From NCBI GenBank assembly GCA_003565195.1, contig PXCX01000138.1, positions 1 through 33,039 of the forward strand: DNA of 33,039 bases, written 5' to 3'. The stretch's first letter is position 1, and every line of letters starts with the position of its first letter. Below the pieces are notes generated by a model. That model was not told where the DNA came from. It ran no database searches and saw only the letters and a list, made by a program, of their open reading frames with translations. The position numbers were made by a program, and so were the translations under genes. Origin of the DNA: PVC group bacterium (GTDB lineage Bacteria; Verrucomicrobiota; Kiritimatiellia; CAIKKV01; PXCX01). This document shows, piece after piece, positions 8,585-27,600 of this stretch.

Positions 8585-8671
8585 ATGGAGGGGTAGTTTC
8601 TGGACAGGCGCTAAACCCGGCACGGTTTGGGTAGTTCCCGACTTCCGGCACGGGATGGAGAATGAGTCGCC

Positions 8672-11150: not shown

Positions 11151-12497
11151 TTGTTGTGCTGGGAAGGAGCGGGCCTTTTCGCGCCTGAACGATGGGAGAT
11201 CGGACGGCATTCCGGTGATGCCGCTAAAGGTTTTTTCCGGATCGACAACGACCATCGGTTCGTGCTCCAATTGCGCTGGTGGACGGCAACGAAACCGGTG
11301 CCGATAGCGCGCCTGGTCGAGCAGCATGCACGTGAGGTTGCCGGTCGTAGGGATGCGCAGTTGCCCCGTTTCCAGAAAACCAATGATTTCCGGTTGCCGC
11401 AAGGGTCGCACGATCGCGCGTCCGCTTTTATTTCGAAGCCGTCCGGCGATGCACCCGCTGATTCTTCCGAACTGCTAGTTATCTGGCAGCGTAGCTCGGT
11501 GGCGCGCGTAATGATGATCCGGTTTATGATCGAACACGGTCAACCGGATCCGATCTGCCTGAAGTCCATGTTGTCGGGACTACGATTGCAAGGACCGCAG
11601 GAAACGCGGGATTGGGCGTTTCACGATCTGGCGTTTCAAACACCGCCGGACTGGCATCTGCAATTGGCGCATTTGTATGCCGGTGTCGCCTATCTCGAAT
11701 TTAAACATCGACGCGACCGGTTTGCGATCCGGCGTTTCAGTGTGGCCGATGCAGTCATGGGCACGACTACGCCCGCAATCGAGGATTTGACGCGCTGGTG
11801 CCGTGTGGTGTATGCCAAGGAATTTTTCGATATGCGATACCGCATCGAATTGATGACGGATCCGGCCGGCCGTCCGGGACTGCGGCTCAGCGGTTCGCGC
11901 CGCTGGCTGGCACCGATCGAGATGCGCTGGCTGCTTCCGCGGCATCGCCGTCTGCCGCGCCGGATCGACATTATCTGGGATGCGGCGGCCAACAAGATCT
12001 ATAACCTTGAGATTCGGCGTCCCTCGCTCGCGATGGAACCGATCCTGGGTACCGTCCAAAAAAGTCTGCGACTGAATCTAGCGGATGTGACCGCCAAAGT
12101 TTGCCAGGACGAACCGCCGAATGGCACGGTGCCGCCTCGCGCACGATCCCTTAATGCGCGCGTACGGAGGCGCAAGGAAGTTTATAGTGAAATCAACAAT
12201 CAGGGTCGCACTGTCCTGACCTACACGTTCCCAAGACCTCGCCGTTTGCGGGGACTACGTCTGTTGGCCGGCCTGGATTCCGGTCCGCAAAAGATCAAGC
12301 GCAAACTGGAACTGGATCTGATCGGTAGTTTGGTCTGGGAACGCTGTGACCGGTCGCCGAAGGTAAGGCAACTGATCGCGGATGTCCGGCAGCGATTCCT
12401 GATCAGCTACCGGGAAGCGGAACTTTCGGTTACGGAATTCATCCGTGCCATGGGTTCACGGGGACTGTTGTCCGTCCATATCGACGCCCCATCCTGA
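11151..12497 (+). CDS. hypothetical protein with C-terminal PqqD-like (RiPP recognition element-like) domain
   Basis: 448-aa ORF. In-frame upstream sequence is closed by a TGA at 11076-11078, and the first canonical start is the TTG at 11151 (AGGA 6 nt upstream). The last ~100 aa (nt ~12176-12494: ...RTVLTYTF...RKLELDLIGSLVWERCDRSPKVRQLIADVRQRFLISYREAELSVTEFIRAMGSRGLLSV) follow the PqqD-family pattern. I did not recognise the N-terminal ~340 aa. Confidence 0.7.
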   Translation: MLCWEGAGLFAPERWEIGRHSGDAAKGFFRIDNDHRFVLQLRWWTATKPVPIARLVEQHAREVAGRRDAQLPRFQKTNDFRLPQGSHDRASAFISKPSGDAPADSSELLVIWQRSSVARVMMIRFMIEHGQPDPICLKSMLSGLRLQGPQETRDWAFHDLAFQTPPDWHLQLAHLYAGVAYLEFKHRRDRFAIRRFSVADAVMGTTTPAIEDLTRWCRVVYAKEFFDMRYRIELMTDPAGRPGLRLSGSRRWLAPIEMRWLLPRHRRLPRRIDIIWDAAANKIYNLEIRRPSLAMEPILGTVQKSLRLNLADVTAKVCQDEPPNGTVPPRARSLNARVRRRKEVYSEINNQGRTVLTYTFPRPRRLRGLRLLAGLDSGPQKIKRKLELDLIGSLVWERCDRSPKVRQLIADVRQRFLISYREAELSVTEFIRAMGSRGLLSVHIDAPS

Positions 12498-12554: not shown

Positions 12555-13283
12555 TCAGCCAATGTTTCCGACTTTAATCCGCAGTTCGGAGGCGTTGGCA
12601 ATGCGTTCAATCTTCCCATCAGCGACCCAAACGACGCGATCGGAAACCGCCAACATGGCGTGATCGTGGGTTGCGGTAATAACGGTCACTCCGAATTTGC
12701 GACTCAATTCGCGCAGCAGAACGATGATTTGCTCACCGGTATGCAAGTCCAGGTTGGCGGTCGGTTCGTCGGCCAGCAGAATGGTTGGTCGGTTGACGAT
12801 GGCGCGGGCGATAGCAACCCGTTGTTGCTGGCCGCCGGACAACTCGTCCGGCCGATGAGAACAGCGGTCGGAAAGTCCCACTTCTTCCAGCGCTTCAAAG
12901 GCACGCTGGCCGGCTTCAGCAGGTGTGGCGCCGGCCAATGCTGCCGGCAAGGCCACGTTTTTGTGAGCCGTCAACGAGGAAATCAAATTGTAGGATTGAA
13001 AAATATAGCCCATATGCCGACTACGGAAATAGGCTGTCTGACGGTCCGTGATCTGATTGAGAAAAATGCTGCCGATTTCAACCGTCCCGCTTGAGGGTAA
13101 ATCCAGTGCGCCGATCATGTTAAAGAGCGTTGACTTGCCGGAACCAGAGGGGCCCATAACCGAAAGGTATTCTCCTTCGGTCACGTCTAGGTTGATACCG
13201 TCCAGCGCATGAACTTCGCCCCGCCCCGTTTTAAACGTTTTACAAACGTCACGCACTTCGATAATGGTGTTGTCGTGTTCCAT
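12555..13283 (-). CDS. ABC transporter ATP-binding protein, MacB/LolD/FtsE-like
   Basis: Walker A GPSGSGKST, Q-loop IFQSYNL, signature LSGGQQQR, Walker B ILLADEPTANLD, H-loop THDH. The start lies 1 nt after the stop of the upstream membrane-protein gene. Confidence 0.95.
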   Translation of the reverse strand: MEHDNTIIEVRDVCKTFKTGRGEVHALDGINLDVTEGEYLSVMGPSGSGKSTLFNMIGALDLPSSGTVEIGSIFLNQITDRQTAYFRSRHMGYIFQSYNLISSLTAHKNVALPAALAGATPAEAGQRAFEALEEVGLSDRCSHRPDELSGGQQQRVAIARAIVNRPTILLADEPTANLDLHTGEQIIVLLRELSRKFGVTVITATHDHAMLAVSDRVVWVADGKIERIANASELRIKVGNIG

Positions 13284-13284
13284 C

Positions 13285-15228
13285 TCAATACCCCAACTGG
13301 AAAATGGACTGGCTAAGAAAGGTAATGCCGACGCACAGCATGGCGATCAAGCCCATGCCGCAACCGAATCCCGCAGAAATCACCGGAATCATTTTCCGCC
13401 ACTGCGGTCCGAACTTCTTTTGAAAATGGAACCGCCCGATCAGGGCGCCGAAAAACATCAGGAACATGCTATGCGGCATCGTCTGGTTCAGTCCCCGCAC
13501 GAACCCGTAGGCCAGCAGGATGGGTGCTCCGAACACAGCCAGGATAATATACGTCAAAAGACCCGCGACGCTGCCGGCCCCGATATAAAGCAGGTTTAGC
13601 GCCTTGTAAAAGGGCGAGAATTCATCCATCGTCGCTCCCCAGGTAATCGTTTGATTTAAGGCCTGGAACTCCCACATGCGTTGAGCGAACGGATAGGCCG
13701 CCGAGGGGATCGGCGCCAGCGACCAGATGAAATTGGCAAACACAATCGAGCACACCAGAATAAATGGCACCAGAAAGAAATCGGCTTTCCAAACCGACCA
13801 GAAACGGGTTCCAGTGAGTTCGGCCTGACGGTAAAAAACCGTATCGCTACCGTAGTTACTAAGCGGAATCGGCAGAAACCAGATTTTAAGTCCTTCGTAT
13901 CCGGACAGGATAAAACCCGCCTCCCTGACCAACGGCAGGTTGACAGCCTGGCCGCACATACCCTCCAAACGGGCGGTTACATAACTCATCACCGGTGTGT
14001 AAACCAATCCGTAAAAACAAAGAACGATCATCACGCCGCGATGCCAGTCGATCAACCAACCACTTAACAAAATGTACAAGCTCACATAACCGAAATAAAA
14101 GGAGAGAATCCCCCAGTTCGGAATGTCACCCCGTCCGGGCGGCGCGCCCAACAGTTCATCCTGCACCGTTTGACCAGCCTTACTGCGTTTCACCGAAGAC
14201 CAGACGGAGTAGAACCCGATCAGCGCCACTGCCAGCGACAGACCGACACTGAAGGAAAAATAAAAGTCGATCGTATTTTTGTACAACGTGACAATCGTTC
14301 CGTCGCCCGGTCGCCATTCCGAGAGAATCCCGGCGCCATACAGAAACGGATTGACCACAATCGTGAAAACCACTCCCAGGAAACTGCCCAGAACAGCCCA
14401 GAATGGCATAACCATCCCGATGAAAAAGCTGCCCATATCGAAACTCATGCCGGTCGCGACTGCCGGCAGAAAGCCTTCGGTTTTGCCGGTCCAGTCCACG
14501 AACGGAATCGGCAGCGGCTGCATCGTCACATTAAAAATGGCGTTGGAAAGAACCGGGATCCCGAGATAAATAAATCCGAAAATCATGCCGATAGCGCCGC
14601 CGATCGAAAAATAGCGCCACCGCGGCGATTCCTCGTCGCCTTGTTCTTCCAGCGCCAGCATGCCCATGGCGCCGACCGGTGCCATGGGGAAGGGGAGCTT
14701 TTCGTAATCGCTGGTAAGCTTAAACAAACCGTATCCGAGAATTCGTCCGTCGACCCGTCCCAGAACACTGGTCAGGAAAACCAATCCCACGGCCGGCAGC
14801 CATTCCCGCATGAAGAACGAGCGTTGTCCCAACACTTCCGGATCGCTGGGCGCGAACCAGATAGGGAAATCGTTCTGCCATCCCTGAGCGTAGACCGCTT
14901 CGGACTGGACCACAAACTGATTCCACAGCAAACCGCTGAACGGCGTGGCCATGGCGGCGCTGCATAGATAAAAGAGGACAAATATCTCGGCGCGTTTCAA
15001 GGTTTTATGGGTGCGCCGTGCAACCTCCAGGAAAAGGATGGCCGTCACCCAGGTGGCGGCGTTGGTGGGACTCTGCCCCGCCACCAACCCCATATACATG
15101 GCTCCCGGCACCATCATGAGGGCGATAAATACTGCTGCGGCAAAGGATGTCCAGGTGAATCCGTCGTTAAATTCCGTCGGACGCTGGATCAGATCCCTAA
15201 ACTCTTCAAGTTCCTTGTCTAATTTCAT
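13285..15228 (-). CDS. polytopic membrane protein, OPT-superfamily-like (function unknown)
   Basis: 647 aa with many hydrophobic helices throughout. The N-terminal layout (helix - YMGLVAGQS - AATWVTAILFLEVARR) and a KLPFPMAPVGAMGM motif (nt 14659-14700) resemble OPT-family transporters by eye. ATGA start/stop overlap with the upstream giant gene at 15225-15228. Confidence 0.8.
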   Translation of the reverse strand: MKLDKELEEFRDLIQRPTEFNDGFTWTSFAAAVFIALMMVPGAMYMGLVAGQSPTNAATWVTAILFLEVARRTHKTLKRAEIFVLFYLCSAAMATPFSGLLWNQFVVQSEAVYAQGWQNDFPIWFAPSDPEVLGQRSFFMREWLPAVGLVFLTSVLGRVDGRILGYGLFKLTSDYEKLPFPMAPVGAMGMLALEEQGDEESPRWRYFSIGGAIGMIFGFIYLGIPVLSNAIFNVTMQPLPIPFVDWTGKTEGFLPAVATGMSFDMGSFFIGMVMPFWAVLGSFLGVVFTIVVNPFLYGAGILSEWRPGDGTIVTLYKNTIDFYFSFSVGLSLAVALIGFYSVWSSVKRSKAGQTVQDELLGAPPGRGDIPNWGILSFYFGYVSLYILLSGWLIDWHRGVMIVLCFYGLVYTPVMSYVTARLEGMCGQAVNLPLVREAGFILSGYEGLKIWFLPIPLSNYGSDTVFYRQAELTGTRFWSVWKADFFLVPFILVCSIVFANFIWSLAPIPSAAYPFAQRMWEFQALNQTITWGATMDEFSPFYKALNLLYIGAGSVAGLLTYIILAVFGAPILLAYGFVRGLNQTMPHSMFLMFFGALIGRFHFQKKFGPQWRKMIPVISAGFGCGMGLIAMLCVGITFLSQSIFQLGY

Positions 15229-18200
15229 GTTTGGGAATCATCCTCCCGGATGCCGAACCGTTCAGCCGTCATGCGGTAATAATGGTCCGCGGCATCATCT
15301 GGAATCGTGCGCCACAGAATAAACTGGTTGCGCAATTCGTGAATAAAAACACGGCTACTGCGTCGCCAGATCGCCGGGCTGCCGCTGCGTCGTTGCATGG
15401 CGACATGTACCTGATCGATACCCTCGATCCGGCTCGGCTGTGTCCAGAGACTAAAGGTTTGCGAAATTCCCTGATCAAACGGTTGCAGCCAGACATTGGC
15501 TTGCAGGGTAAAGCGTTCGTCCTTGTGCTGGACTTCGACGTCGTTGGCGGCGAAAAGGCCCACCGACTTTTCGCTATGCGACGCCAGATATTCTTCGAGA
15601 AAGCTGACCAGACCGACCATATCGTAATCAGAAACGGTGAACGGGAATTCCAGGCGCAACCAATCGCCTTCCGGTTCCGGCATACGCCACTGCCTTTGCG
15701 CGCCGGGATTGGCGGACCGCGATGCTCTGAAGGCCGGATACACTGTTGATGCCAAAACGGTCAGCATGACCATCAACAGGGTCAGCATCGCGTTCAACGA
15801 AGAATGGTTCATCGCCGGTGCGCCCACCCAGCCCTGTTGCGCCATCCATTCGACCAACTTTGAGAATACATGTGCAAACAGATATCCGCCCATGCCGCCT
15901 ACCACGGCGTAGACAGCGGCTTCAGCGAAAAACAGCGTTGCCACATGCCGCGGTCCGAGACCAAGAGCCGAAAAGGTGAAAATTTCGCGTTGCCGGTCGC
16001 TGACCGAGCTGAGCATCGTGCCGAAGATAATCAAGCCGCCGAGCACCAGCGGCACCACAACACGGGCAAGTCCGCCCATCGATACTTCCGTCGCGTATAA
16101 TGCCCGGAAATGGTCCCCGCCCGCAGCGAAACTAGCCCGCCGCGACAGTTGGATTGCCAAATCCGACGCAATTCGACGGGCTTGCGCTTCGGTTTGCGGC
16201 AAGAAAACCAAACTCCGAATCGGCATATTCAGGCGCGGGGCGCGCGGTTGCCATACCAGGGAAACCGTCTCGGGATCGAGCGGCGGATAATCTTCCAACT
16301 CCATTTCCTCGAGCCGTAACTCGATCGCCAGCGGATCGTTGGGATACTCCTGTTCAAGCTGGCGGTTAACCTCCTCCAGGTTCGGAGGGACGAAGGATGC
16401 GCCATCCAGCGTACGCAAAGCACCCAGGCGCACTGGATCAAACGTACCCCTTAACACATGGCGCTGCCCGGCCAATTCGATCACCGCTGCGCCGTTGGTC
16501 CGAACATGTTCCGGAAGACGACGGTAAATCTCCGGCGGCAGAAATACGCCGCCTTCCTCTGTGAATCCCTCGAGGTCGCCGTCCAGAATATCCCGCAGTT
16601 CGGGATACAATCTCAAGTCCTGTGGCGGCAGAGTTGCCTGCCCGCTGACCGTGAACACGGTATCGTCGGGGAAACGTCCGGCCATGCTTTCATGCTCGTC
16701 GGCAACGTTCCAAGTGCGGAAATAGCTATCCGCCTCGTCTTCATGCAGTTCCCGGAGCATCACAATGGCTTGTTCGTCAAAGGCGCTCCCAGGCACGGAC
16801 CCGATTTCCACGAGCGGCATGCGGGGTCCCGGCCCGACATAGATCTGCCGGACACCGTCCTCGCTTTTAAACGAGCCGAAGAACAGGATCGTGAAGGTCA
16901 GCAACAAGATGGTGACAGCGGTTAAAACGCTGCGCAGCGGTCGGCGTCGCATGGTGGCGATTCCCAGGGCGACTGCTGCCCCGATCATACCCCGAGCCGT
17001 TCGAGTGCTTTGGTGACTTGCGGTAGCCAAACCATGCAGTTTTCGCATTTCGTATTCGAACTTTTGCCACATAATGGCGATCACGAAGCTGCTCATGATG
17101 ATAATCACGAACGCCAGCAGTACCACGATGGGAAAACTTACGAACCGAAACGCCGGATGTACCAGGTAAAGGATGGTGAACACCACGCCGAACACCACAA
17201 CGAACCCGCCGATTTGACGATAAATATTGGGTGTGCCGATGACGGCGCGCTCGAACGCGAAAGCGAATGGAATAGCCAGCAGGAGCAAAATAACGATGGC
17301 TGTTACCAGATCGTTGGTAACGTCGCGTACCGGTTCGTAGACGCGCGCCGAATAGCCGCGCGAGGCCAGCGTCCGCGACCAGCGCTGGGCCGGCGAAACC
17401 GTCTCCGCCGTCGCCTGGTCAAGAAAACGTTCCGCTTGCGCATGCAAGCGTTCCAGCGAATGCTGCATGACGTTACGCCGCCGCAGGCTGTCTAGCCGGC
17501 TCTCGTTCAAAATCCAGGTGTCACGGGCCGACCGGAGCTGGGCATCCACGAATCCCGGTTCCGGCTCATAACCGTCACCGACCGGTTCGACTTCCGAGTT
17601 GTTTAGCAGCAATTGCGCCCCGTGCAACACCTTGTAGCGGCGTACACGTCCGGCATACACCGCCAGCATGTCGCCGCCCAAGGTTAAATTCATCTCTTTG
17701 GGCGCGCTCTCCGTTATCCCGTCGATGAAACGCACCGCCGCTTCACTGGCCAGGCCCATCGGTGTACGGATTCCAGCGAGCATGACCCGCACATCGGCTT
17801 CGCTGATCAGGATTTGGTTGCGGCGATCGGCGAAATACCAGCCGGCCAATTCCCAACTTCCGGCGACGCCGAGACCCCCGCCCGGCGAGCGTAAACTGAT
17901 GCCCTTGATCCGGCCTTGATCATCATGAAGCGCGGCCTGAATCGCCATGCGTGCACCTCGATCCGTCAGCAACGGAAACGTTCCGGCGTGACTGCTGTAC
18001 ATCAGGTGTCCGCCCCAACCGTGCAGCGGCGGTCGTTGGCTTACTCGCCCGCGCTCCATCGCCAGTACGACGGCACCCGGGGCATTCTCGCCCGCCTTGA
18101 AACGTTCGTCGTAATGGCGCACGTACGATCCGTCATAGCTCGTTCCGTCCCACTCGGGAACATTGAACGTCAAGGTGGCCGTCAACCGCGGCGGAATCCG

Positions 18201-20144
18201 CGTTCGTCCCAATTCCGGCACTTGGGCCAACTGCCGGATAAAATCCAAAGCTTGCTCAAGCTGTGCGGCATAGGCCACCATATCGGCGCTGCTTTCAGCC
18301 GGCGGCGGCGGCACCGGCTGGACGGCACCCGGATTGGCCAGTTCCAAAATGAATGTGGTACGTCCACTGACTCTTGCCGCGGCCGGACTGGGAAAATCGG
18401 GCACGTACCCCATGGGGGCGGGGCTCGTCTTAGGCGTAGCCACCGAAGGGGTATACGTCTCCCGCATCCAGCGAATCACATGCGGGTTCGACAAGGAGGC
18501 ATGTTGCACGTCTTCGGCCGGTCCCAAAACAGCCCAGTTTCGCGGTGCCGGCAGCAGATTAAAGACAATTATGTTAACCAGTCGATGCTCGTCTAAACGC
18601 TCGCCCAACGCCTGTTGATGTTCTAGAATTTCGCGTTCGCGGGATTGTTCCTTCAAACGATCCTGCCAGCTTTGCTGCACGTCTGAAATTAAAGTTTCAA
18701 AAAATGCGCGTTCCTCGGGATCGTCGTCCGCTCCGGGAACCCGTTCGGCGGTTAACAGGACGCGTACGGAAAACACGATGTCCCGGTCATGTTCGGCCTG
18801 CTCCAGTCGCTCCATTGCATCGTCACGCGTCAGCTCGCGCAGGCGTTCAGCACGGTCAAGCTCAAGCTGTAAGGCCGCCCTCTCGTCGTCTTCATCGGTT
18901 GATCTGCCCGGTACCAGCCGCCGCAGACTCATTTCCAGTCTTGCAATCCGTCGATCCAGCAGATTGATTTCCCGGCGTACGTCACTGAGCGCGGATACGC
19001 GTTGATTGTAAATCTGTTCGATGGTGTCGAGTACGGACTGACGAGCTTTTGACGCAGCGGGCTTTTCGCTGCGTCGCTCCATCAGGGCCACGGGATCTTC
19101 GATCGCCTCCAAGAGCCCCTTCAAAAACGAATGCTCCCGGTCGCGATCCCGGATCATGCGCAGGAACGAACCGGGAACGTCGCTTGGACGGTAGGCGTCC
19201 CGAGCGTAAAGGAACTGATACTGTCCGGCTTGTTGCTGCGCTTCGTTATCAAAAAAAACGGCCAGGACCGGACGTTCAAGCGGATTATGTTGCAGCCACG
19301 CGACCGTCTCGATCAAGCCCGCCACGTTGGCAGCTTCCTGCGGTAACTGTGTCGCAAACGGCAAGGTTCCAAAGGTATCGTAATGCGTCGCCAAAACCAA
19401 CGTGTCGGCGGGTGATTCATCAACCGGTTGGGTTCCGGGAATGAAAACGTATAGATTACGTCCTTCGACGCGTTCGAATCCCATTCGGCTGAAAAGGGTG
19501 ATTTCCGTCCCGTTCAGCAGACCTTGTTCAGCAGCGATTTCAGATTCGACGAAGAACCGGGGGATATCCAGATGGGCGAAATAAAACTTGATGTCTTCCT
19601 CATGGAACGCCTCAGACGGCGCAGCTTCCCGTTCGCCTACGAACATCACGGCCACGGCGCCGGCTTGGACGGCGCGGGTCCAGCGTTCAGCGCAGTTGTA
19701 ATCGAAGATTGCGATATGGTCCCTGATTTCCTTGCCTTCGAAATGCTCCCAATGTCCGTCCGCCAGATATACCGTCGGCGCCGTCAACCCGTCGATCGGG
19801 GTCACAGGCAACGCCAAGCCGTTCGGTCGCAGCGGTTGCATGGGAAACCGTTGGCCCGCCTGCTTGAAGTAGCAATCCCCGTCCGCCATCTCCAGTTGCG
19901 GCATGGCAAACGGTTGCACGAGGATCTGGTCGTCGGTCACACCGGCCTCGCGCAATCGACGCAGGATCGTGTCGCCCGCCGCACGCCCTTCATCCGAACC
20001 CGCCAGACGATGCGGTGTTGCGAGCAGTTCCGACATGGTTTCCGTCAAGCGCGTGACATCCACTGTCGCGCCGTAAACACTGGCGCACAAGACAACAACA
20101 GCGCAGACCGTCATCCAAACTATCTTTTTTAGGCGTCGTTTCAT
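15225..20144 (-). CDS. 1639-aa fusion protein: signal/anchor - PA-domain M28-peptidase-like ectodomain (apparently degenerate active site) - coiled coil - large ectodomain - 3-TM bundle - FtsX/MacB-type permease module - C-terminal cytoplasmic domain
   Basis: N-terminal MKRRLKKIVWMTVCAVVVLCASVYG. PA-like segment GKEIRDHIAIFDYNCAERWTRAVQAGAVAVMFVG. M28-like THYDTFG...PQEAANVAG...FFDNEAQQQAG (nt ~19242-19385). Arg/Glu/Leu-rich heptad-like stretch at residues ~330-520. Hydrophobic bundle at nt ~17065-17315. MacB-type TM1 (MRRRPLRSVLTAVTILLLTFTILFF, nt ~16870-16955). FtsX motif SDRQREIFTFSALGLGPRHVATLFFAEAAVYAVVGG plus terminal TMs (nt ~15715-16080). A ~160-aa tail follows. ATGA overlaps occur at both ends. 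Confidence 0.85.
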   Translation of the reverse strand: MKRRLKKIVWMTVCAVVVLCASVYGATVDVTRLTETMSELLATPHRLAGSDEGRAAGDTILRRLREAGVTDDQILVQPFAMPQLEMADGDCYFKQAGQRFPMQPLRPNGLALPVTPIDGLTAPTVYLADGHWEHFEGKEIRDHIAIFDYNCAERWTRAVQAGAVAVMFVGEREAAPSEAFHEEDIKFYFAHLDIPRFFVESEIAAEQGLLNGTEITLFSRMGFERVEGRNLYVFIPGTQPVDESPADTLVLATHYDTFGTLPFATQLPQEAANVAGLIETVAWLQHNPLERPVLAVFFDNEAQQQAGQYQFLYARDAYRPSDVPGSFLRMIRDRDREHSFLKGLLEAIEDPVALMERRSEKPAASKARQSVLDTIEQIYNQRVSALSDVRREINLLDRRIARLEMSLRRLVPGRSTDEDDERAALQLELDRAERLRELTRDDAMERLEQAEHDRDIVFSVRVLLTAERVPGADDDPEERAFFETLISDVQQSWQDRLKEQSREREILEHQQALGERLDEHRLVNIIVFNLLPAPRNWAVLGPAEDVQHASLSNPHVIRWMRETYTPSVATPKTSPAPMGYVPDFPSPAAARVSGRTTFILELANPGAVQPVPPPPAESSADMVAYAAQLEQALDFIRQLAQVPELGRTRIPPRLTATLTFNVPEWDGTSYDGSYVRHYDERFKAGENAPGAVVLAMERGRVSQRPPLHGWGGHLMYSSHAGTFPLLTDRGARMAIQAALHDDQGRIKGISLRSPGGGLGVAGSWELAGWYFADRRNQILISEADVRVMLAGIRTPMGLASEAAVRFIDGITESAPKEMNLTLGGDMLAVYAGRVRRYKVLHGAQLLLNNSEVEPVGDGYEPEPGFVDAQLRSARDTWILNESRLDSLRRRNVMQHSLERLHAQAERFLDQATAETVSPAQRWSRTLASRGYSARVYEPVRDVTNDLVTAIVILLLLAIPFAFAFERAVIGTPNIYRQIGGFVVVFGVVFTILYLVHPAFRFVSFPIVVLLAFVIIIMSSFVIAIMWQKFEYEMRKLHGLATASHQSTRTARGMIGAAVALGIATMRRRPLRSVLTAVTILLLTFTILFFGSFKSEDGVRQIYVGPGPRMPLVEIGSVPGSAFDEQAIVMLRELHEDEADSYFRTWNVADEHESMAGRFPDDTVFTVSGQATLPPQDLRLYPELRDILDGDLEGFTEEGGVFLPPEIYRRLPEHVRTNGAAVIELAGQRHVLRGTFDPVRLGALRTLDGASFVPPNLEEVNRQLEQEYPNDPLAIELRLEEMELEDYPPLDPETVSLVWQPRAPRLNMPIRSLVFLPQTEAQARRIASDLAIQLSRRASFAAGGDHFRALYATEVSMGGLARVVVPLVLGGLIIFGTMLSSVSDRQREIFTFSALGLGPRHVATLFFAEAAVYAVVGGMGGYLFAHVFSKLVEWMAQQGWVGAPAMNHSSLNAMLTLLMVMLTVLASTVYPAFRASRSANPGAQRQWRMPEPEGDWLRLEFPFTVSDYDMVGLVSFLEEYLASHSEKSVGLFAANDVEVQHKDERFTLQANVWLQPFDQGISQTFSLWTQPSRIEGIDQVHVAMQRRSGSPAIWRRSSRVFIHELRNQFILWRTIPDDAADHYYRMTAERFGIREDDSQT

Positions 20145-20890
20145 GGTGTATGGCCGACCTCCACGGCAGCCAGTTCGATATTGAGATCTTCGCGACGCGA
20201 AATACGTTCCACCTGTCCGTCGCGGATCCAGACCACGCGATCGGAGACATCCAGCATGCGGTGATCATGGGTGGAACAGATCACGGTTGCGCCACTCTCC
20301 TTGTTAAGCCGAACCAGCAAATCGTTGATTTCCTGGCCGGTTTTAAGATCCAGATTGGCTGTTGGCTCATCGCAAAGCAGAATGGAGGGATCGTTGGCCA
20401 GCGCTCGCGCAATGGCCGTTCGCTGCTGTTGTCCACCGGACATTTCCAGCGGTCGATGATCCCAACGATCTTTGAGACCCACCATGTCCAATAATTGCAT
20501 GCCGCGCTTCCGGGCTTGATCATCGATCAGACCGGCAAAAATCATGGGTGTCGTTACGTTTTCCAAGCAGGTTTGCACGGTAACCAAATTATAACTCTGA
20601 AAAATGTATCCGATTTTCTTGCAGCGAATATAGGCCAGTTCGTCGGCGTTAAGCTGGGCTACATCGACTTCATCGATAAAGACGGTGCCTGACGTCGGTG
20701 TGTCCAGCGCACCGATCGCATTGAAGAGCGTGGACTTTCCCGATCCTGACGGACCCATGATTGAAACGAATTCACGGCGCACCACTTCGAGGTCAATGCC
20801 GCGCAACGCTTTGGTAATCACGCCGTTGCGGTTGTAATCCCTGCAAACGCCTTGCGTCCGAATAATGATTTTTGAAAGTTTCCGACTCAT
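20141..20890 (-). CDS. ABC transporter ATP-binding protein, MacB/LolD/FtsE-like (paralogue of 12555-13283)
   Basis: GPSGSGKST, IFQSYNL, MSGGQQQR, ILLCDEPTANLD, THDH. It shares long identical stretches with the other ATPase, including the C-terminal VSDRVVW-x-DG-x-ERI. Its stop overlaps the start of the giant gene (ATGA at 20141-20144). Confidence 0.95.
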   Translation of the reverse strand: MSRKLSKIIIRTQGVCRDYNRNGVITKALRGIDLEVVRREFVSIMGPSGSGKSTLFNAIGALDTPTSGTVFIDEVDVAQLNADELAYIRCKKIGYIFQSYNLVTVQTCLENVTTPMIFAGLIDDQARKRGMQLLDMVGLKDRWDHRPLEMSGGQQQRTAIARALANDPSILLCDEPTANLDLKTGQEINDLLVRLNKESGATVICSTHDHRMLDVSDRVVWIRDGQVERISRREDLNIELAAVEVGHTP

Positions 20891-20894
20891 ATTC

Positions 20895-22346
20895 CTATTC
20901 CACCCTCATGGCGTCCACCGGCACCATGCGCGCGGCGGCAAAGGCCGGGTACAAGGCCGAAAGGGTAGCCAGCGCCAGGCCACTGGCGATGGCGATGAGT
21001 GCTCCCCATCCCAGATCCGACCACGGGAAAAACCGCCAAACCCAGTGCCCGTAAGCATAGGCCATCCGAGTGACGGCGATCACGCCACCCAAAAGCACAC
21101 CCAGAAATCCGCCCACCAGACCCATCGCCGCAGCCTCGATCAGCGACAATCGTGCAATGAATCCGTTTAACGCACCCAGACATTTCATTGTGGCGATTTC
21201 ACGAAAACGTTCGATTACGCTGATCAGCATGGCATTGGTAATGCCGGCAATACAAACCATAAACGAAACCACCAGCAACCAAAACATATTTGCGTCCAAC
21301 CCGGTTCGCGTACCGTAATTGGCGATCAGCAACTCATCCATATCGAGAATACGCCGCGTTTGCAAGATCCGTCGAGCCGCATCCACCGCAATGCCGGCAT
21401 CGATATCGGCAGCCTGGGCCAATTCGCGTTCCTCCATCCATAACGCCCGTTCATCGTGCTCGGCCAGCGCCACCAAAGCGCGACGCTGATCGAAAACCTC
21501 CCCAAACTCGTCGCGCCAGGCGGTAGCCAAGCGCGGTTCACGCAGGACACGCAGCAAATCACGTTCGCGCTGGCGATCGCCGGCGCGAACCATCAACGCC
21601 TCCAGTCGCTCCGACGGCACGGAAACCTGATGTGCGTCGAACAAATCGGCCGCGGTCTCCACATCGGTTGCAGCCAACCATTCGGCTAGGCCATCGGCCT
21701 CGATATGGGACGCAAACGCTTCGCGATTTTTATTAAAGTGATCGCTGGCCCGTCGCAAACTCTCCAAAAAATAGGATCTGCGGGGCAGGAAATCAACTAG
21801 GCCGTCGGGCAATCGCAGGGGAATCATGCGAGCTGTACGCACGAACTCGCGTCGTTCATCCGGATCTTGTAATTGCGCGAATAAAGTTTCGCGATCAAGG
21901 CCTTCCGTCAATATGCGTTGATGTCCCGGCGGCAATTCGTCAAACCAGGCATCGTATTGCAACAAACTGGCGCAATCATCCATAAAAAGCGGCAGACGCT
22001 CCTTGTCCACCCCCATCCACGCCGTAAGACTCTGCGGCAACCAGGATCCCGGCGGCAGCTCCGCCAGATTGCGGGCCAGTTCGCGGGGGGGCATTTCGGT
22101 GTCGAAAAAAACAGCCACCTGTCCCAGCTCGCGCTGTTCGCTGGCCAGCGCACCAACCCCTGTCTTGCAAGCGTCGGCAATCTGATGTTCAACCAAAACA
22201 TTCGACAAAAAGGCCACCGCCAGCACCACAACGCCCAGTGTCAGCAACGAGCGAAACAGCCGGTACTGGATACCATCGACGGCGATGGCCACTTGCTTGA
22301 GCAACGGCAAATTATTCTGATCGCGTAAATCGAGTTTGGTAGTCAT
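20895..22346 (-). CDS. FtsX/MacB-type ABC permease with a long charged, helix-like loop
   Basis: TM1 YRLFRSLLTLGVVVLAVAFLSNVLV. A ~290-aa Glu/Arg/Asp/Leu-rich loop (nt ~21296-22190). C-terminal FtsX signature LISVIERFREIATMKCLGALNGFIARLSLIEAAAMGLVGG plus two further TMs, ending YPAFAAARMVPVDAMRVE. There is a 4-nt gap to the downstream ATPase gene. Confidence 0.9.
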   Translation of the reverse strand: MTTKLDLRDQNNLPLLKQVAIAVDGIQYRLFRSLLTLGVVVLAVAFLSNVLVEHQIADACKTGVGALASEQRELGQVAVFFDTEMPPRELARNLAELPPGSWLPQSLTAWMGVDKERLPLFMDDCASLLQYDAWFDELPPGHQRILTEGLDRETLFAQLQDPDERREFVRTARMIPLRLPDGLVDFLPRRSYFLESLRRASDHFNKNREAFASHIEADGLAEWLAATDVETAADLFDAHQVSVPSERLEALMVRAGDRQRERDLLRVLREPRLATAWRDEFGEVFDQRRALVALAEHDERALWMEERELAQAADIDAGIAVDAARRILQTRRILDMDELLIANYGTRTGLDANMFWLLVVSFMVCIAGITNAMLISVIERFREIATMKCLGALNGFIARLSLIEAAAMGLVGGFLGVLLGGVIAVTRMAYAYGHWVWRFFPWSDLGWGALIAIASGLALATLSALYPAFAAARMVPVDAMRVE

Positions 22347-22422
22347 AGTGCTTGCTGAAAACCTGCTGCCCAGAAACCGCGGGCTTCACCGAGAGCGCAA
22401 GCGAAACATTTCGAAAAGCAGG

Positions 22423-24582
22423 TTAATGGTTAAACATATCTCTAAAAAACGTGATCCATTCAAATTCAAACATGTAATGATTATACCGGTAAAACACGAT
22501 ATTGGCCACAATCCAGACTGAGTAAATAAAGGCCAATCCCATGATCGTTCCAATAAAAAACGGCCGACTGCTTTCGAACAGGCGTCCACCGCCAATTTTA
22601 AGGATGGCCTTCTTGATCAGCCAGCCGATCATAAACGAGAACCATAACCGGGACATCAACCAACTTCCCAGCAACACCATGGGAAGAGGATGCAGCGGAA
22701 ATTTCGGGTAGCGTAGCCGTGCGGCGCCCGTCGCCAGAACCAGCATGGCGCCGAAGACAAACATGGGTGGAAACCGTGGATTCGTGCTAACGGCGGACCA
22801 GCGTTCCAGCATCGGGACGGACTCGCTCACGTCCAGCGTCCGTGTGGTGTCGCCTTCGTGGAAGACGCTGCCGACGACTCTTGCAGCCGCGTTGACGGGC
22901 CCTAAGCTATCGAACGGGTAATCGTTGGCAGCTCCTTCGCTGCTATAGCCCATCCAGATGGCAATCGCGACGGCCAGCACCAAAATCACGCCCAGAAACG
23001 GCACCAAAATACCCGGAGTTTGTAAGCGCCGCGTCACGCGCGATTCAACATGTACGGCGTTAATGACCATGGGTGCCAGCAACATTAGCGTCGTCCGTTG
23101 CGGAATCACGAGCACGCCTAGAATGGCCAATAAAGCATAGCCTTCGGCTCCCAACACCCGTTCGCCAAATGCGGCCACCATGAACGGCAAAGGCAGAAGA
23201 ACCCCCAGCGGTATCCACGGAATCCCCATCTCCGCCACGAGGCGGCAGACGACCAGGAACATAATCAAGACAATCAGGGTCCAGAGAATCGCAAGATCAA
23301 TTGCCACGCCATAGTGAACCAGTGTCGCGACAAACGCAACAACCGACAGTAAAAACACACGGCAGATGCGAATACTCTGCCGATCGATTTCGTTTTCCTC
23401 ATTTTTGGATCGAAATCTTCGCCATCCCAAGGCCCGTTTCAACAATGCCAGATAATAATTCCGGCCGCCATAGAGAATCATGCCAGCCATCGCCCAGGTT
23501 GCCCCCATCGACATCGGGCCGACATTGGGGCCGAAGCGGTCGCCGGTTTGAACATAAAAAATGTATGTGCCCAACACCATCAGCGGCCAGGTGAACCAAG
23601 CGGTGAAACTGATCTCCGACGGCAGCAAAACCGCTACGGAAATAACAGCAAAAAACGCCCACCCTCGCAACAACGAATATCCCTCATGACTGTCCCGCAA
23701 AAAGGAAAACTGGTTTGCCAGCTCATAAAATTGAAAGCGGGTTGGAATCGCGATCATATTCGGGAAATGGGCATGCAAACCGTTGACCGTGAACACCACC
23801 ACCATGACAATGAACCCGATCCAGAAACGGCGATTGTAAAAAATATCCGGTAGCACACGGTTCTGGTTGTATTGCACCATGGCAACGCCGACCTCGGCTA
23901 ACGGGAACGGTGTAAGCTCCCGTTCGGCCCATTGACGGTACAACAAATAGCCAAAGCTGATACACAACGTTAAAAACGTCAAAAATAACGGCAGCCAAAA
24001 AAGCGTGGGACGGGTCCAGGCTTGCCAGGAAATATCGCCAATCTGTGCCATGCCCCCCAGGGTTTCGGCAATCCCGTCGTCAAAACTCCGGGACTCAACG
24101 CCGTCCAGCAGGGCATGCGCAGGCAGCAACTCGAAAATATTTGTTCGCGCCAGCATTGTCAGGTTGCTGTGACGCGCCTCCAGCAAGGAAGGCAGATGCC
24201 CCACCGTCATTACCCATGGCGATGCCAGAAAACGCGATAACGGTGTGGCGATCAGGGCCAACGTTAACGCCACCGCCAATTCGCCGTCGCGCAAGGACCA
24301 CGTTGGAAGGAACCTTCTGAGCAGGGTATTGAAAATGCCGATGAACACAAACAAGCTTGCCAGCGCAAGCGGCGCTACGTAATGGTGCTGGGAAAGTTCA
24401 CGGGGTGCCATGATCCCATCATGATAATTGGCAATCAAAATCCCTGCCACACCGATCACCAATGCCAACAACAAAGAGCGTACCGTTACCGATCTCACGG
24501 ACGCGGGATCGGTTGATTGAGTTGGATTACCTCGATTCAACATAACGGGCCCAGTTGTACCACAAGCTTCTGATTTAATCAA
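22423..24582 (-). CDS. polytopic membrane protein, OPT-superfamily-like (function unknown)
   Basis: 719 aa with hydrophobic helices throughout and an ELTPFPLAEVGVAM motif (nt ~23881-23919) echoing KLPFPMAPVGAMGM of the 647-aa protein. The TTG start at 24582 is preceded by GAGGA at a 6-nt spacing. An alternative ATG at 24543 lacks an SD. Confidence 0.8.
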   Translation of the reverse strand: MIKSEACGTTGPVMLNRGNPTQSTDPASVRSVTVRSLLLALVIGVAGILIANYHDGIMAPRELSQHHYVAPLALASLFVFIGIFNTLLRRFLPTWSLRDGELAVALTLALIATPLSRFLASPWVMTVGHLPSLLEARHSNLTMLARTNIFELLPAHALLDGVESRSFDDGIAETLGGMAQIGDISWQAWTRPTLFWLPLFLTFLTLCISFGYLLYRQWAERELTPFPLAEVGVAMVQYNQNRVLPDIFYNRRFWIGFIVMVVVFTVNGLHAHFPNMIAIPTRFQFYELANQFSFLRDSHEGYSLLRGWAFFAVISVAVLLPSEISFTAWFTWPLMVLGTYIFYVQTGDRFGPNVGPMSMGATWAMAGMILYGGRNYYLALLKRALGWRRFRSKNEENEIDRQSIRICRVFLLSVVAFVATLVHYGVAIDLAILWTLIVLIMFLVVCRLVAEMGIPWIPLGVLLPLPFMVAAFGERVLGAEGYALLAILGVLVIPQRTTLMLLAPMVINAVHVESRVTRRLQTPGILVPFLGVILVLAVAIAIWMGYSSEGAANDYPFDSLGPVNAAARVVGSVFHEGDTTRTLDVSESVPMLERWSAVSTNPRFPPMFVFGAMLVLATGAARLRYPKFPLHPLPMVLLGSWLMSRLWFSFMIGWLIKKAILKIGGGRLFESSRPFFIGTIMGLAFIYSVWIVANIVFYRYNHYMFEFEWITFFRDMFNH

Positions 24583-24654: not shown

Positions 24655-27600
24655 TTACTTGCGACGTTCCTCATGCAGCATTACCGCACCCTCGCGCAAC
24701 GCCTCGGCGCTCAACCTAACCTCGCCGATCCCGGGCAGCGACACAATACACGGTACATTCGCGCGCACGGCGTACACGCCGGGTTCCACGCGTGCCACAT
24801 GCACGAAGGTGGGCACCTCGAAGATGTCGTCGGGCCCGAAATGGTAGGCGTACAACTTGCGATTGCCATGATCGTCCGCCGTGAACAGCGCATCCGCGAC
24901 CGGCTCGTTGCCTTCGAGAAGCCACGAGAATGTGGTGCCCGGATAGGATGCCAGCCAGCGTTTCGAACCGTCTTCGTTGACGATCTCGCGCCTGACGAAC
25001 TGCCAGCCGCCGGCCTGGTATTCGGGGTTTTCGGGCATACGGAAATAAAACAGATTGTTTTCGGGGTCAACGCGGGTAACTTCCATTTCAAGCAATACGT
25101 CGCCGGCCGTCACGCCCGTTGCGCGTGTGTCCCGTTCGTCCGTCAACAGCCTGAGCGTGCGCCGTCCATCACCGTCGGCATCGGGTACATCGTCCCATTC
25201 CACTGTGTCGGGATATGACAATTCGGTTCCCGGCCAGCCCAGATACATCCAGCGTTCACGCGGTTCGAGGGTCGCCTTCCAATAGCGGTCATGATCCTCG
25301 TTGGTGACCGTGGTCCCGTCGGCGTGCCGGGTATCGGATCCGTAAACCATGGGCTCCAATTCGGTGGCCACCAGTCGGTTTTCGGCATCGACGAATTCGA
25401 TGTTGGATTGATAATAGCGCGGGGTTCTCAATACGCGGGCGTTTGTCCCGGAGACCCGATCGAGTTCGAAAGCGCTCCAATGGCGTTCGTTGCCGATCCG
25501 CGCCAGGGCGCCGTCAAGCAGACCCTCGGGCATCGGGTCGGAAAGTGTCAGGCCATGATTACGCCAGTCCGCCGCAGTAATGCGGGCGGTGTGAACGCCG
25601 CGTTCGGCGCTGACCCGGATATCGTCGCGTTCGATTTCGGTCCCGCCGACCAAGTGCAGCAGACGCAGTCCCTGGGCATCCTCGCTGAGCAAGGCGTATT
25701 CGCCGTTGACGCGCAGTCCACCTTCAACCTGATGGATGATTTCCGGTCGCCGCGAAGCGAACAGCAGGTCGCGCCGGTCATTGTCCATCTCAACTTCCAG
25801 GGCGACACCGCGCCGGGCGTCGTCCGGGTCCGCGGGTTCGACCTTCAATTCACGCTGCGCACCCATAAACGGTTGACCGGACCAGGCTTCGTAGAGCGCC
25901 GGATATACGGAAACACGGCCTTCGTCCGCCTGGCGTCCCTGCACGTGCAGGTAGGGCATGGCCACCGGATAGGCATCGGATTGCGCGCTACCGACCATGA
26001 CATGATCGTTCTCACGTCCGAACAGGTGCAACGTCAGGCCGACCGGTTGATCGGGTTTGAAAAAATCGCGCTGATAATGGCGCCGCATGTCTTCGTCCAG
26101 TTCCCAGGTGGCCCTCAGGTAATCGCCGGCCCGCCCTTCCTGGCGTGAAGCCTCAGGGCGAGCGGCCATGTAGGCCATCGCGGTATCGCTGCTGGCCGGT
26201 TCCAGGGATACGTTGGTGTCCAGTCGGTTCTCGTCGGCGGTCGGCGCCCCGTGAAAACAATAGGTATGCACCCGGCCGCCGGCCACCCGGAACACATCGA
26301 AAAGATAGACATCGGCGTGTTCAGGGCCGGTATCGCCGTCGATCATGGCCGTGGCGCGATGATATAGCGACACCTCGGGATGCGAGGTGGCGCGCGCCGC
26401 CGCTGCCGCGTAATGGGATCCCGGCAAAGCGGCCAGCGCCGTCGGCCAGCCGGTGGCGGAGACGGTGGAACCGGGAAACGAATTCTCGAAATTGCGTTCA
26501 TCGATTTCGACCAGGTTATGCATGCGATTGATGCGCATGTTCGGCGTGGCGCGCAGGTTGCCTTCGTGTCGTCCGCCGAGATCGGGCGCCAGACGGGTAC
26601 CATGCGCGAACATTTCGAGGTTCAATGTGTCCTGGTGCGCGTGTCCGCGGCCGATCCCGGTCCGGATGGCGACAGCGCGTTTAACCAACGGGTTCGTGTC
26701 CGTTTGCCCGGATTCGAGCACGATGGCGCCGAACCCTTCCACGTAACGCGACGGGAAGGAGGGGATGTCGGGCAACCGGGGGCGGCGCAAATCCATGCTG
26801 TCTCCGATGATGAACGGGAATCCGCCGGCGGCATGCAGTTTCTGTTTGGTGAGCTCGGCCTCGGGCATGTGCGGATACAACTCGGGGTTATTCATATCGA
26901 AGCGCCGATCGCCGCCCGCGGCGACGTAACGGCCCAAAATCCCGGCAATCTCGCTCAGCGCAGGGCCCACGTAACCGGTGGCGCCGACATAATGAACGCC
27001 GCCACGATTGAACGAGGTGAACACTTGATCGTCCAGCCCGCCGGCATCAGCCATATTGTAATGAACGCGTTTGAACAACCCGTTTTCGAGCATTGCATGG
27101 CTGACTTGGTTAACGCCCTGGACCAGAGGGATGAAGGCCGACACCGGATCGCTACGCATTACCCGGCGGTTCAGGCAATCCATGCCGTGTTGCAGGATAT
27201 GGGTGTCAAGCAACTCGATTACATCGGCGGGCGTTTTAACCCAGGGTATGCGAGTGTTGACATAATCGGCCAGATCCTGGTTATCCTTGATGGCGTCGAA
27301 CAACCGGTCATAGGCCGTGGCAAGTTCCTTCAGACGGCCGGGTTCATGTCCGCTATACACGGTCTTGCCGCCGCGTGATCCCCAGATCAGGGTGTTTTCC
27401 CGGTTAAAATTCGCGTGCCCGCTGACTTCACTGTAGTAATGATCCAGCCCCGGATATTTTTCGGCGATCGCACACAACATGACGGCGCCATCCCAGGCTG
27501 CCTCGAGGTTGCCGGTACGTTCGTAGGCCAGGGCCACATCATTCACGCCGCCGCGTCCATGGGCGCCCATGATACCGCGCCAACCCCGGAACAAGGGGTC

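Follow-up and report, generated by a model that had tools for sequence, protein, structure and literature searches.

Contig PXCX01000138.1 of assembly GCA_003565195.1, a 33,039-nucleotide stretch of DNA from a PVC group bacterium of the Kiritimatiellia that was analysed at its full length (the window), includes a cluster of seven to eight genes. Their products join two permeases and two ATPases, of type VII among ATP-binding cassette (ABC) proteins, to two polytopic membrane proteins with a predicted OPT fold and to a cytoplasmic adaptor. A preliminary description of this DNA had recognized six of the genes; the adaptor, named X-PqqD here, was overlooked in it and is a conserved component of the cluster. 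The genes recur in the same order outside this genome, and we think that they probably encode a single dedicated multi-subunit system.

Gene organization of the cluster

The components of the cluster are listed below in the order of the minus strand, with the basis of each assignment in parentheses (ORF, open reading frame).

22423-24582, minus strand: DUF6785+DUF6784 polytopic inner-membrane protein, 719 amino acids (ORF list, Pfam, AlphaFold2 model)
20895-22346, minus strand: FtsX/MacB-type permease, 483 amino acids (ORF list, Pfam FtsX)
20141-20890, minus strand: ABC ATPase 'a', LolD/MacB/FtsE-like, 249 amino acids (ORF list, Pfam ABC_tran)
15225-20144, minus strand: giant FtsX protein, 1639 amino acids (ORF list, Pfam FtsX)
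13285-15228, minus strand: polytopic membrane protein, apparently of a divergent branch of the OPT family, 647 amino acids (ORF list, Pfam OPT in orthologues)
12555-13283, minus strand: ABC ATPase 'b', paralogue of ATPase 'a', 242 amino acids (ORF list, Pfam ABC_tran)
11151-12497, plus strand: X-PqqD cytoplasmic adaptor, 448 amino acids, convergent with the operon (Pfam PqqD, AlphaFold2 fold matches)

The first six are the consecutive minus-strand genes of the preliminary description, for which the ORF list gave identical order and coordinates. The junctions reported there were also read directly in the sequence: ATGA start/stop overlaps at 20141-20144 and 15225-15228, a 1-nt gap at 13284 (TGAgATG), and a 4-nt gap at 20891-20894 (TAGgaatATG). 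The gene set is translationally coupled by start/stop overlaps, and the OPT-like gene has such a coupling at either end, with the gene of the giant FtsX protein and with that of ATPase 'b'. A 76-nt spacer, in which a terminator scan of the region located no terminator-like site, separates the DUF6785 gene from that of the 483-amino acid FtsX protein. The counts obtained by scanning the cluster region for promoters and terminators equalled the shuffled expectation and were uninformative. The 719-amino acid ORF was called from a TTG at 24582, and the true start of the DUF6785 protein is likely the in-frame ATG at 24543 (MLNRGNPTQ...), giving a product of about 706 amino acids.

Conservation of the cluster in other genomes

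One genome per GTDB species was scanned using an alignment of the OPT-like protein as query. The gene was found in at least 579 species genomes, with 50-60% identity of the product across phyla, and the best 80 loci were compared. These span eight higher taxa: Planctomycetota (34 loci, mostly Phycisphaerae), Verrucomicrobiota (17), Lentisphaeria/Victivallales (15), Kiritimatiellia (6, the closest to the window at 75%), Polyangiales/'Deltaproteobacteria' (3), Fibrobacterota (2), Chitinivibrionales (1), and Omnitrophota (1); one locus is unclassified. The isolate LW23 (locus L020) and a closed chromosome (L054) are among them.

The genes encoding the FtsX permease, the ABC ATPase, the giant FtsX protein, and the OPT-like protein are collinear on one strand in all 56 loci that have at least 7.8 kb of upstream flank. 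In the related loci, the OPT-like gene is flanked by that of the giant FtsX protein and that of the second ATPase; an ABC gene is found no more than 1 kb downstream of it in 74 of the 75 loci that have enough downstream flank. The sole exception is L016, a metagenome-assembled genome of Planctomycetota, in which a 479-amino acid ORF of no known family replaces the ABC gene downstream of position 11965. Start/stop overlaps are also present in other phyla (L001, L003). All 28 fully flanked loci include DUF6785, X-PqqD, or both; the DUF6785 gene is mostly directly upstream of the cluster, and at times downstream or on the opposite strand. When the C-terminal half of the giant protein was used as query, the matches at E≤1e-30 formed 1063 clusters (50% identity), almost all of proteins 1.6-1.9 thousand amino acids long.

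With one gene order shared by all 56 independent loci that have enough flank, the arrangement is far beyond chance. The genes co-occur outside the genome that the preliminary description dealt with, in Verrucomicrobiota, Kiritimatiellia, Planctomycetota, Lentisphaeria, Fibrobacterota, Omnitrophota, and Polyangiales.

The FtsX permeases and the ATPases

The 483-amino acid permease, in which Pfam FtsX was detected with an E value of 4e-10, has four hydrophobic segments in hydropathy plots, consistent with a layout of one transmembrane (TM) helix, TM1, a helical extracytoplasmic domain of about 300 amino acids, and TM2-4. The TM2-4 region of its family profile matched in the PDB the Spr0694-type permease, MacB, LolF, YtrF, LolC/E, and FtsX (E 2.6e-22 to 1e-8). 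Pfam FtsX was located at residues 1366-1476 of the giant protein (E 1e-13), for which the PDB matches were MacB, LolC, LolF, and YtrF. The FtsX-domain layout of type VII permeases (TM1, insert, TM2-4) is present in both proteins. The invariant motif consists of R380, E383-T386, and K388-A392 in the 483-amino acid family and of D1383, R1384, E1387, I1388, S1392, L1394, and G1395 in the giant protein. Common to both is ER..EI...LG, just past the first of the helices in the Pfam FtsX region, a segment that we take to be the coupling helix of MacB-type permeases. MacB_PCD, the Porter/Sabre-type periplasmic-domain family shared by MacB and LolC/E, was not matched in the Pfam scan of the cluster proteins.

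Pfam ABC_tran was found in ATPase 'a' with an E value of 2e-31. The two ATPases, described previously as clear paralogues, are indeed 52% identical (E 2e-88), and form distinct orthologue groups with 64% and 60% identity within groups and 48% between them. The Walker A motif, Q-loop, signature, Walker B Glu, and H-loop are kept in 62 'a' and 70 'b' orthologues. The ATPases are ancient paralogues, both predicted to be catalytically competent; as both groups keep all the catalytic motifs, neither is a degenerate regulatory copy. Their top NCBIfam matches were LolD, MacB, DevA, FtsE, and DarD, all below the curated cut-offs. The two permeases and the two ATPases can be considered, from their sequences, type VII (MacB/FtsX-fold) ABC proteins that are not orthologues of the Lol, FtsEX, or MacB proteins.

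The ectodomain and other regions of the giant protein

The order of regions in the giant protein is signal peptide, periplasmic ectodomain of about 920 amino acids, three TM helices, conserved basic loop in the cytoplasm, FtsX module, and C-terminal domain, with eight hydrophobic segments by hydropathy. The regions with defined coordinates are as follows.

19215-20063, minus strand: ectodomain part similar to M28 aminopeptidases with a PA domain, residues ~28-310 (profile against PDB)
17073-17309, minus strand: three extra TM helices, residues ~946-1024 (946-964, 978-996, and 1006-1024; hydropathy peaks)
15705-16931, minus strand: FtsX module, with TM1 at ~1072-1090, an extracytoplasmic domain of ~270 amino acids, and TM2-4 at 1362-1468
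15228-15692, minus strand: cytoplasmic C-terminal domain, residues 1485-1639, 155 amino acids (column conservation)

A profile of the first 350 or so residues of 31 orthologues matched M28 aminopeptidases with an inserted PA domain in the PDB, the best being 2ek8 (E 5.7e-19) and YwaD (6hc6, E 1.5e-12), as well as transferrin receptor, nicastrin, GCPII, and nicalin (E 5.7e-19 to 1e-4 overall). Weak M28 (E 0.018) and PA (E 0.11) matches were obtained when the N-terminal 500 amino acids were scanned against Pfam as a single sequence, and homologues of the giant protein carry an annotated Pfam M28 domain. The HHDS, DASG, and AEE motifs of 2ek8 presumably hold the M28 zinc ligands and the catalytic Glu. 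The His position of HHDS is variable in the giant-protein family, with H in 2 of 31 orthologues; at the Asp position of DASG, Ala is found in 30 and 27 of 31; and the Glu-Glu position of AEE is occupied by N/G/S followed by Q/E/H. Because other residues have replaced the zinc ligands and the catalytic Glu at the corresponding positions, the ectodomain is predicted to be a pseudo-peptidase that has lost both zinc ligands and catalytic residues. It shares with transferrin receptor, nicastrin, and nicalin the M28+PA scaffold, the replacement of metal-binding and catalytic residues, and the attachment of a receptor- or gatekeeper-like pseudo-enzyme to a membrane complex; in transferrin receptor and nicastrin, ligands or substrates are bound by this scaffold. 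Unlike them, the giant protein is bacterial, and its single chain combines the ectodomain with a coiled-coil, a beta-rich region, an FtsX permease, and the three TM helices.

The three extra TM helices, a stretch with many invariant residues, return the chain from the ectodomain to the cytoplasm ahead of the FtsX module. The C-terminal domain ranks with the best-conserved parts of the protein, with a mean column identity of 56% and 19 invariant residues.

The two membrane proteins with a predicted OPT fold

More than 3200 database homologues were found for the 647-amino acid OPT-like protein, many of them with PF03169 (OPT) and a few named 'peptide transporter'. While the protein of the window itself had no Pfam match even at E≤10, Pfam OPT was matched by 16 of 28 aligned orthologues of its family (54-80% identity), with a best E value of 6.8e-12. 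As orthologues match Pfam OPT and homologues carry PF03169, the 647-amino acid protein appears to be a divergent branch of the OPT family. Its N-terminal cytoplasmic peptide (residues 1-25, KLDKELEEFR..M.PP..F.DGF) is unusually conserved across phyla, with L7, P17, F20, G23, and F24 invariant; it is a candidate site at which the RRE domain of the adaptor described below would dock.

The 719-amino acid protein was assigned to Pfam DUF6785 (E 5e-56) and DUF6784 (E 5e-21), and none of 24 DUF6785 family members matched Pfam OPT. An AlphaFold2 model made with 31 sequences had a mean predicted local distance difference test score (pLDDT) of 84.4 and a predicted template modelling score (pTM) of 0.88. 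The only significant PDB matches of this model were the HvYS1 structures 7wst and 7wsr (E 1.6e-8 and 4.5e-8, respectively, with template modelling scores of 0.57-0.64), which superposed on it over the whole length (about 727 columns); the next match had an E value of 1e-2 and a score of 0.13. HvYS1 (barley Yellow Stripe 1) is an OPT-family protein for whose fold its authors found no structural homologue; they describe a homodimer in which there is a large central cavity, and propose that it works in an elevator-like manner (PMC9691689). All characterized OPT and Yellow Stripe-like (YSL) proteins import their substrate, and the genome context of the prokaryotic OPTs suggests peptide uptake (PMC3061005).

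Direct comparisons of the 647- and 719-amino acid proteins gave little: no significant similarity by BLASTP, with a 22-residue 'PFP.A.VG' motif alone at E 0.017; a probability of 16% (E 1.6e-3) when the family profiles were aligned by hhalign; and no cross-matches in Pfam scans of the two families. Searches of the PDB by sequence with the profiles of both families also returned nothing, although HvYS1 is in that database, and there is no NCBIfam model for either protein. Since neither BLASTP nor hhalign nor Pfam connected them, the link between the two is at the fold level. Both are predicted to have the OPT fold, the 719-amino acid protein from its structural model alone. The label 'OPT-like' in the preliminary description can therefore be kept for both, for the 647-amino acid protein by the Pfam OPT matches of its orthologues and for the 719-amino acid protein by its fold match to HvYS1, but not by sequence in the latter case. 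Similarly, the claim that one parts list occurs twice stood for the two FtsX permeases and the two ATPases, and for the OPT-like pair at the level of fold but not in BLASTP comparisons. The HvYS1 match, the Pfam OPT matches, and the synteny link the two proteins by fold and place them regularly in the cluster, which argues against the possibility considered in that description that they are unrelated ordinary transporters. They resemble the OPT/YSL proteins (TC 2.A.67) in that the 647-amino acid family matches Pfam OPT and the DUF6785 model superposes on HvYS1; known OPTs, in contrast, are stand-alone proton-coupled importers, while the cluster has two divergent paralogues beside ABC modules.

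Distant DUF6785/DUF6784 proteins (about 25% identity) form a divergent pair around a PBP-like gene in L090 (10001-15226) and in L091. This pair adjoins secretin and prepilin-like (N_methyl) genes, and no FtsX or ABC genes accompany it.

The X-PqqD adaptor

The product of the plus-strand gene at 11151-12497 is composed of an X domain (residues ~20-305) and a PqqD/RRE domain (~340-445), the latter matching Pfam PqqD with 30 bits (cut-off 23.4). No TM segment was found in it by hydropathy. In a fold search with its AlphaFold2 model (pLDDT 77.5), the X domain matched PsbP (E 9e-5 to 3e-3), Tsi3, the Eag-type chaperone SciW, and Mog1, and the PqqD part matched the leader-peptide-bound lasso-peptide B1 proteins TbiB1 and 6jx3 with template modelling scores of about 0.8. 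A Pfam scan of 34 X-domain proteins assigned them to no family save for one marginal PsbP match, which is supported by the fold search. Judging from these models, both domains would be binding modules rather than enzymes.

A PqqD gene is found beside the cluster in every annotated related locus, in various arrangements: as a fused X-PqqD gene of about 450 codons in L001, L086, and L087; as a split pair (about 290 and 125 amino acids) directly after the last ATPase gene in L003; upstream of DUF6785 in L004; and between DUF6785 and FtsX in L089. In searches with hidden Markov models, the X domain was detected in 24 and PqqD in 25 of the 28 fully flanked loci. Fusions of X to PqqD were found in six loci (five after dropping a duplicate contig), and were the only subunit gene fusions located when such fusions were sought across the loci. 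That the two are fused in several genomes shows that X and PqqD work together. Like the RiPP recognition elements (RREs) PqqD and TbiB1, this protein has a PqqD domain above the Pfam cut-off and the TbiB1 fold; unlike in those RRE proteins, a PsbP/Mog1-like domain is fused to this domain or lies next to it, and the domain is tied to a membrane transport cluster with no precursor or maturation enzymes.

Comparison with known ABC systems

The proteins of the cluster are claimed by no characterized system, as the preliminary description had supposed: the NCBIfam models for LolD, MacB, and FtsE and for LolC, LolE, and FtsX all gave scores far below their cut-offs. The ATPases scored 217 and 210 bits against the LolD model (cut-off 307.75) and 205 and 186 bits against the FtsE model (264.85). 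The permeases scored 18-33 bits against the LolC and LolE models (cut-offs 362-540) and 24-29 bits against the FtsX models (225-255). No description of the cluster or of DUF6785/DUF6784 was found in the literature searched, and no curated family covers the cluster. By these measures the cluster would not belong to LolCDE, FtsEX, or MacAB.

In its way of working, the cluster would nevertheless come closest to type VII ABC systems that depend on partners, namely LolCDE, FtsEX-EnvC/CwlO-SweCD, YbbAP-TesA, and MacAB-TolC, and similarities to each of them were found. As in LolCDE, where the gene order is lolC-lolD-lolE, two different FtsX-fold permease genes flank a gene for a LolD-like ATPase, and Lol proteins (LolD, LolC, LolE, and LolF) figure in the top NCBIfam and PDB matches. 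Apart from scoring far below the equivalog cut-offs, the cluster differs from LolCDE in that the extracytoplasmic domains are unrelated by sequence and in having components foreign to Lol: another ATPase, a pair of OPT-fold proteins, the RRE adaptor, and the ectodomain of about 920 amino acids. The MacB-fold TM2-4 and the LolD/MacB-like ATPases are shared with MacAB-TolC, FtsEX-EnvC/CwlO-SweCD, and YbbAP-TesA, and in MacAB-TolC, FtsEX, and YbbAP-TesA a type VII module likewise does periplasmic work together with dedicated partners. The nucleotide-binding domains of the cluster are encoded by separate genes and are not fused to the permease as in MacAB-TolC, and no adaptor of the MacA/HlyD type was found among the cluster genes here or in the annotated related loci. 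Neither is there an EnvC-like protein or a TesA-like hydrolase, unlike in FtsEX-EnvC and YbbAP-TesA. The partners are instead polytopic OPT-fold proteins and a cytoplasmic adaptor, a combination of which we found no example among type VII systems in the literature searched.

A model for the system and its alternatives

The preliminary description interpreted the cluster as a composite, possibly hetero-oligomeric envelope machine, and this interpretation is supported: the proteins fall outside the known systems, the genes stay together in other genomes, and the two polytopic proteins are connected by their fold. We infer a model that extends to physical co-assembly, stoichiometry, cargo, direction, and function, in which the products assemble into a single hetero-oligomeric machine, of type VII ABC subunits and their OPT-fold partners, and handle a cargo of peptide-like nature in the outward direction. 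The model as a whole is tentative, with a probability of roughly 0.4.

The core of the machine would be a type VII ABC assembly made from two different FtsX permeases, the 483-amino acid protein and the giant protein, and powered by two different, fully competent LolD-like ATPases. MacB-type transporters are dimers of FtsX modules with two nucleotide-binding domains. Since these transporters work as dimers and HvYS1 is a homodimer, the simplest assembly would be a pseudo-symmetric heteromer composed of the 483-amino acid FtsX and the giant protein, ATPases 'a' and 'b', and the DUF6785 and OPT-like proteins, with X-PqqD on the cytoplasmic face; what was described as two copies of one parts list may thus be one pseudo-symmetric heteromeric complex. 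The DUF6785/DUF6784 and OPT-like proteins would dock to the core and may pair like the HvYS1 homodimer. They could supply the transmembrane path that MacB-type transporters lack, as to our knowledge MacB-fold transmembrane domains form no substrate channel. On the cytoplasmic side, X-PqqD would recognize a segment of a peptide or protein and offer it to the complex in the membrane. On the periplasmic side, the extracytoplasmic domains of the FtsX proteins would relay ATP-driven mechanotransmission to the giant ectodomain and so bring about release or hand-over of the cargo. As it seems to be catalytically dead and is similar to transferrin receptor and nicastrin, the ectodomain would serve as a binding or hand-over platform and not as a protease. 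Recognition in the cytoplasm and outward handling, that is export or delivery to the envelope, are favoured because the adaptor resembles secretion chaperones and leader-peptide binders, although we consider the outward direction only slightly better than an even bet when set against uptake.

Several observations weigh against this model. In the window, the X-PqqD gene lies on the strand opposite to that of the other cluster genes, and no such gene was found within the flanking DNA examined at some of the loci. When ORFs of 20-110 amino acids were clustered across about 80 loci, those conserved were antisense shadows of the ABC genes, and no conserved cargo or precursor was located. Neither the C-terminal domain of the giant protein, for which there was no Pfam match, nor its middle region (residues 520-945) gave PDB matches above chance level, and the extracytoplasmic domain of the 483-amino acid permease had no PDB sequence match to a known domain. 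Most of the loci compared come from metagenome-assembled genomes. Since the distant relatives in L090 pair where there are no FtsX or ABC genes, the DUF6785 fold is not intrinsically ABC-dependent and can work on its own. Finally, the precedent of the OPT importers argues against export through the OPT-fold proteins (PMC3061005).

The same precedent favours a system for the capture and uptake of peptides, in which the dead M28/PA ectodomain acts as receptor, the FtsX-ABC part hands the ligand to OPT-fold importers, and X-PqqD receives it, in line with the genome context of prokaryotic OPTs (PMC3061005). An aminopeptidase/PA scaffold that is kept while catalysis is lost is what ligand receptors such as transferrin receptor have. 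Several of the host lineages are polymer degraders, and in L003 the genes for TonB, ExbB, ExbD, and an M3 oligopeptidase come directly after the cluster, though in that locus only. We know of no type VII ABC system that imports, and importers normally need no cytoplasmic adaptor resembling a leader-peptide binder or chaperone; uptake is for these reasons somewhat unlikely.

The order FtsX-ABC-FtsX, which mirrors lolC-lolD-lolE, could also mean that two separate, co-regulated transporters share one operon: a LolCDE-like unit for lipoproteins or lipids, consisting of the FtsX pair and ATPase 'a', and a second unit consisting of the OPT-fold module and ATPase 'b'. In agreement with this, LolD is the best NCBIfam match of both ATPases, and LolC, LolE, and LolF are among the PDB matches. 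The ytr operon of Bacillus subtilis encodes two ATPases, extra membrane proteins, and the FtsX-type YtrF, which is itself a PDB match here. The distance of the ATPases and permeases from the LolD, LolC, and LolE cut-offs and the lack of a Pfam match to MacB_PCD speak against a LolCDE-like unit, and there is no precedent for an OPT-fold protein with its own ABC ATPase. Moreover, the OPT-like gene is translationally coupled to the giant FtsX gene as well as to that of ATPase 'b'. Such a division into two transporters is in our judgement distinctly unlikely.

A cluster for ribosomally synthesized and post-translationally modified peptides (RiPPs), such as a bacteriocin, with export and immunity functions would account for the PqqD/RRE domain and its lasso-peptide B1 fold: the RRE would bind the precursor, and the ABC and OPT-fold proteins would export the product or protect the producer. 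The ATPases do resemble DarD, the ATPase of the darobactin exporter, and ATPases of bacteriocin export. In the loci compared, no conserved precursor peptide, radical SAM protein, cyclase, or leader protease was found in or beside the cluster. RiPP clusters are patchy in distribution, whereas the spread of this cluster is housekeeping-like, as judged from the number of species and the identity of the OPT-like protein across phyla, which makes a RiPP cluster very improbable. A fortuitous juxtaposition of ordinary unrelated transporters is effectively refuted by the identical gene order in 56 of 56 loci from many phyla, the start/stop overlaps, and the distinct and conserved orthologue groups, even if each component family occurs alone elsewhere, as in the distant DUF6785 pairs that have no ABC genes.

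A more far-reaching reading can also be proposed, which we consider unlikely. In it, the OPT-fold proteins, instead of being passive neighbours, would be carriers of the elevator type, and a heterodimeric mechanotransducer of the type VII ABC kind would drive them in trans; the RRE/chaperone-like adaptor would select a peptide or protein as cargo, and the nicastrin-like dead peptidase would gate the periplasmic side. ABC importers of the energy-coupling factor (ECF) type combine two different ATPases and scaffold membrane subunits with a substrate carrier that moves by elevator or toppling motions. They would offer an analogy in the way of working, not in sequence or fold, as the scaffold of the cluster would be FtsX-fold and its carrier OPT-fold.

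Neighbouring genes and variant loci

Directly upstream of the cluster (24655-28356, minus strand) lies a gene for a 1233-amino acid protein with a weak Heparinase II/III C-terminal Pfam match (E 1.9e-5) and no hydrophobic segment. It was considered as a member of the system and rejected, as it was found in 1 of 83 loci, as a weak match on the opposite strand (L010). Farther upstream (28555-31238, minus strand), a 558-amino acid ORF that had no Pfam match overlaps by about 52 nt a 352-amino acid AAT/peptidase C45-like ORF, and this pair is followed at 31320-32666 by a gene for an FAD-dependent oxidoreductase. The other side of the window (10-10955) holds housekeeping and carbohydrate genes: a PurL-type FGAM synthase (10-3594), a GFO/IDH/MocA oxidoreductase, a DUF711 and ACT-domain gene pair (4680-6870), a GH4 glycosidase (7127-8584), and two GT4 glycosyltransferases (8672-10955). 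No neighbour other than those described recurred across the loci, save for a GFO/IDH/MocA oxidoreductase in six of them, which was judged to be a chance occurrence and not accepted as a member of the system.

In L003 (Verrucomicrobiae), genes for TonB, ExbB, two ExbD proteins, and the M3 oligopeptidase (13960-18377) lie directly after the X and PqqD genes on the same strand, which may hint at a link to outer-membrane uptake; L003 is alone in this among the annotated loci. The DUF6785 component is duplicated in L027, a Kiritimatiellia metagenome-assembled genome, where two tandem DUF6785 genes are found downstream of the cluster on the opposite strand (14119-18229, minus strand). In L092 (2157-12109), a gene for a 1783-amino acid FtsX protein is followed by a 130-amino acid gene product, a 665-amino acid protein that had no Pfam match and is possibly OPT-like, and separate DUF6785 and DUF6784 ORFs, with no ABC gene in between. 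In the long-read contig L088 (1945-12892), the cluster seems to be broken up into many short ORFs, with the FtsX and ATPase genes each split in two and the giant gene split in three; these breaks are probably sequencing frameshifts rather than signs of decay.

Significance

Type VII ABC systems such as Lol, FtsEX, MacAB, and YbbAP are central to the building of the Gram-negative envelope, and each newly solved member showed a different job. The cluster can be considered a type VII ABC system with an unprecedented set of partners, and there is a real chance that it represents a new hybrid transport mechanism. The family is large, uniform, and phylogenetically broad, and it joins a type VII engine to the OPT/Yellow-Stripe fold, so far known in stand-alone importers only, and to a binding domain of the leader-peptide type. 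It also gives the first functional context for Pfam DUF6785/DUF6784 and for a bacterial pseudo-peptidase similar to nicastrin and transferrin receptor. The envelope biology of the Verrucomicrobiota, Kiritimatiellota, Lentisphaerota, and Planctomycetota has been comparatively little studied. Should the components assemble into a single machine, it might move peptides or proteins through the inner membrane, or out of it, in a new manner; and if the reading of the OPT-fold proteins as carriers driven in trans is true, the cluster would define a hybrid class of primary active transporter and an unrecognized inner-membrane route for peptides or proteins in the PVC group and its relatives.

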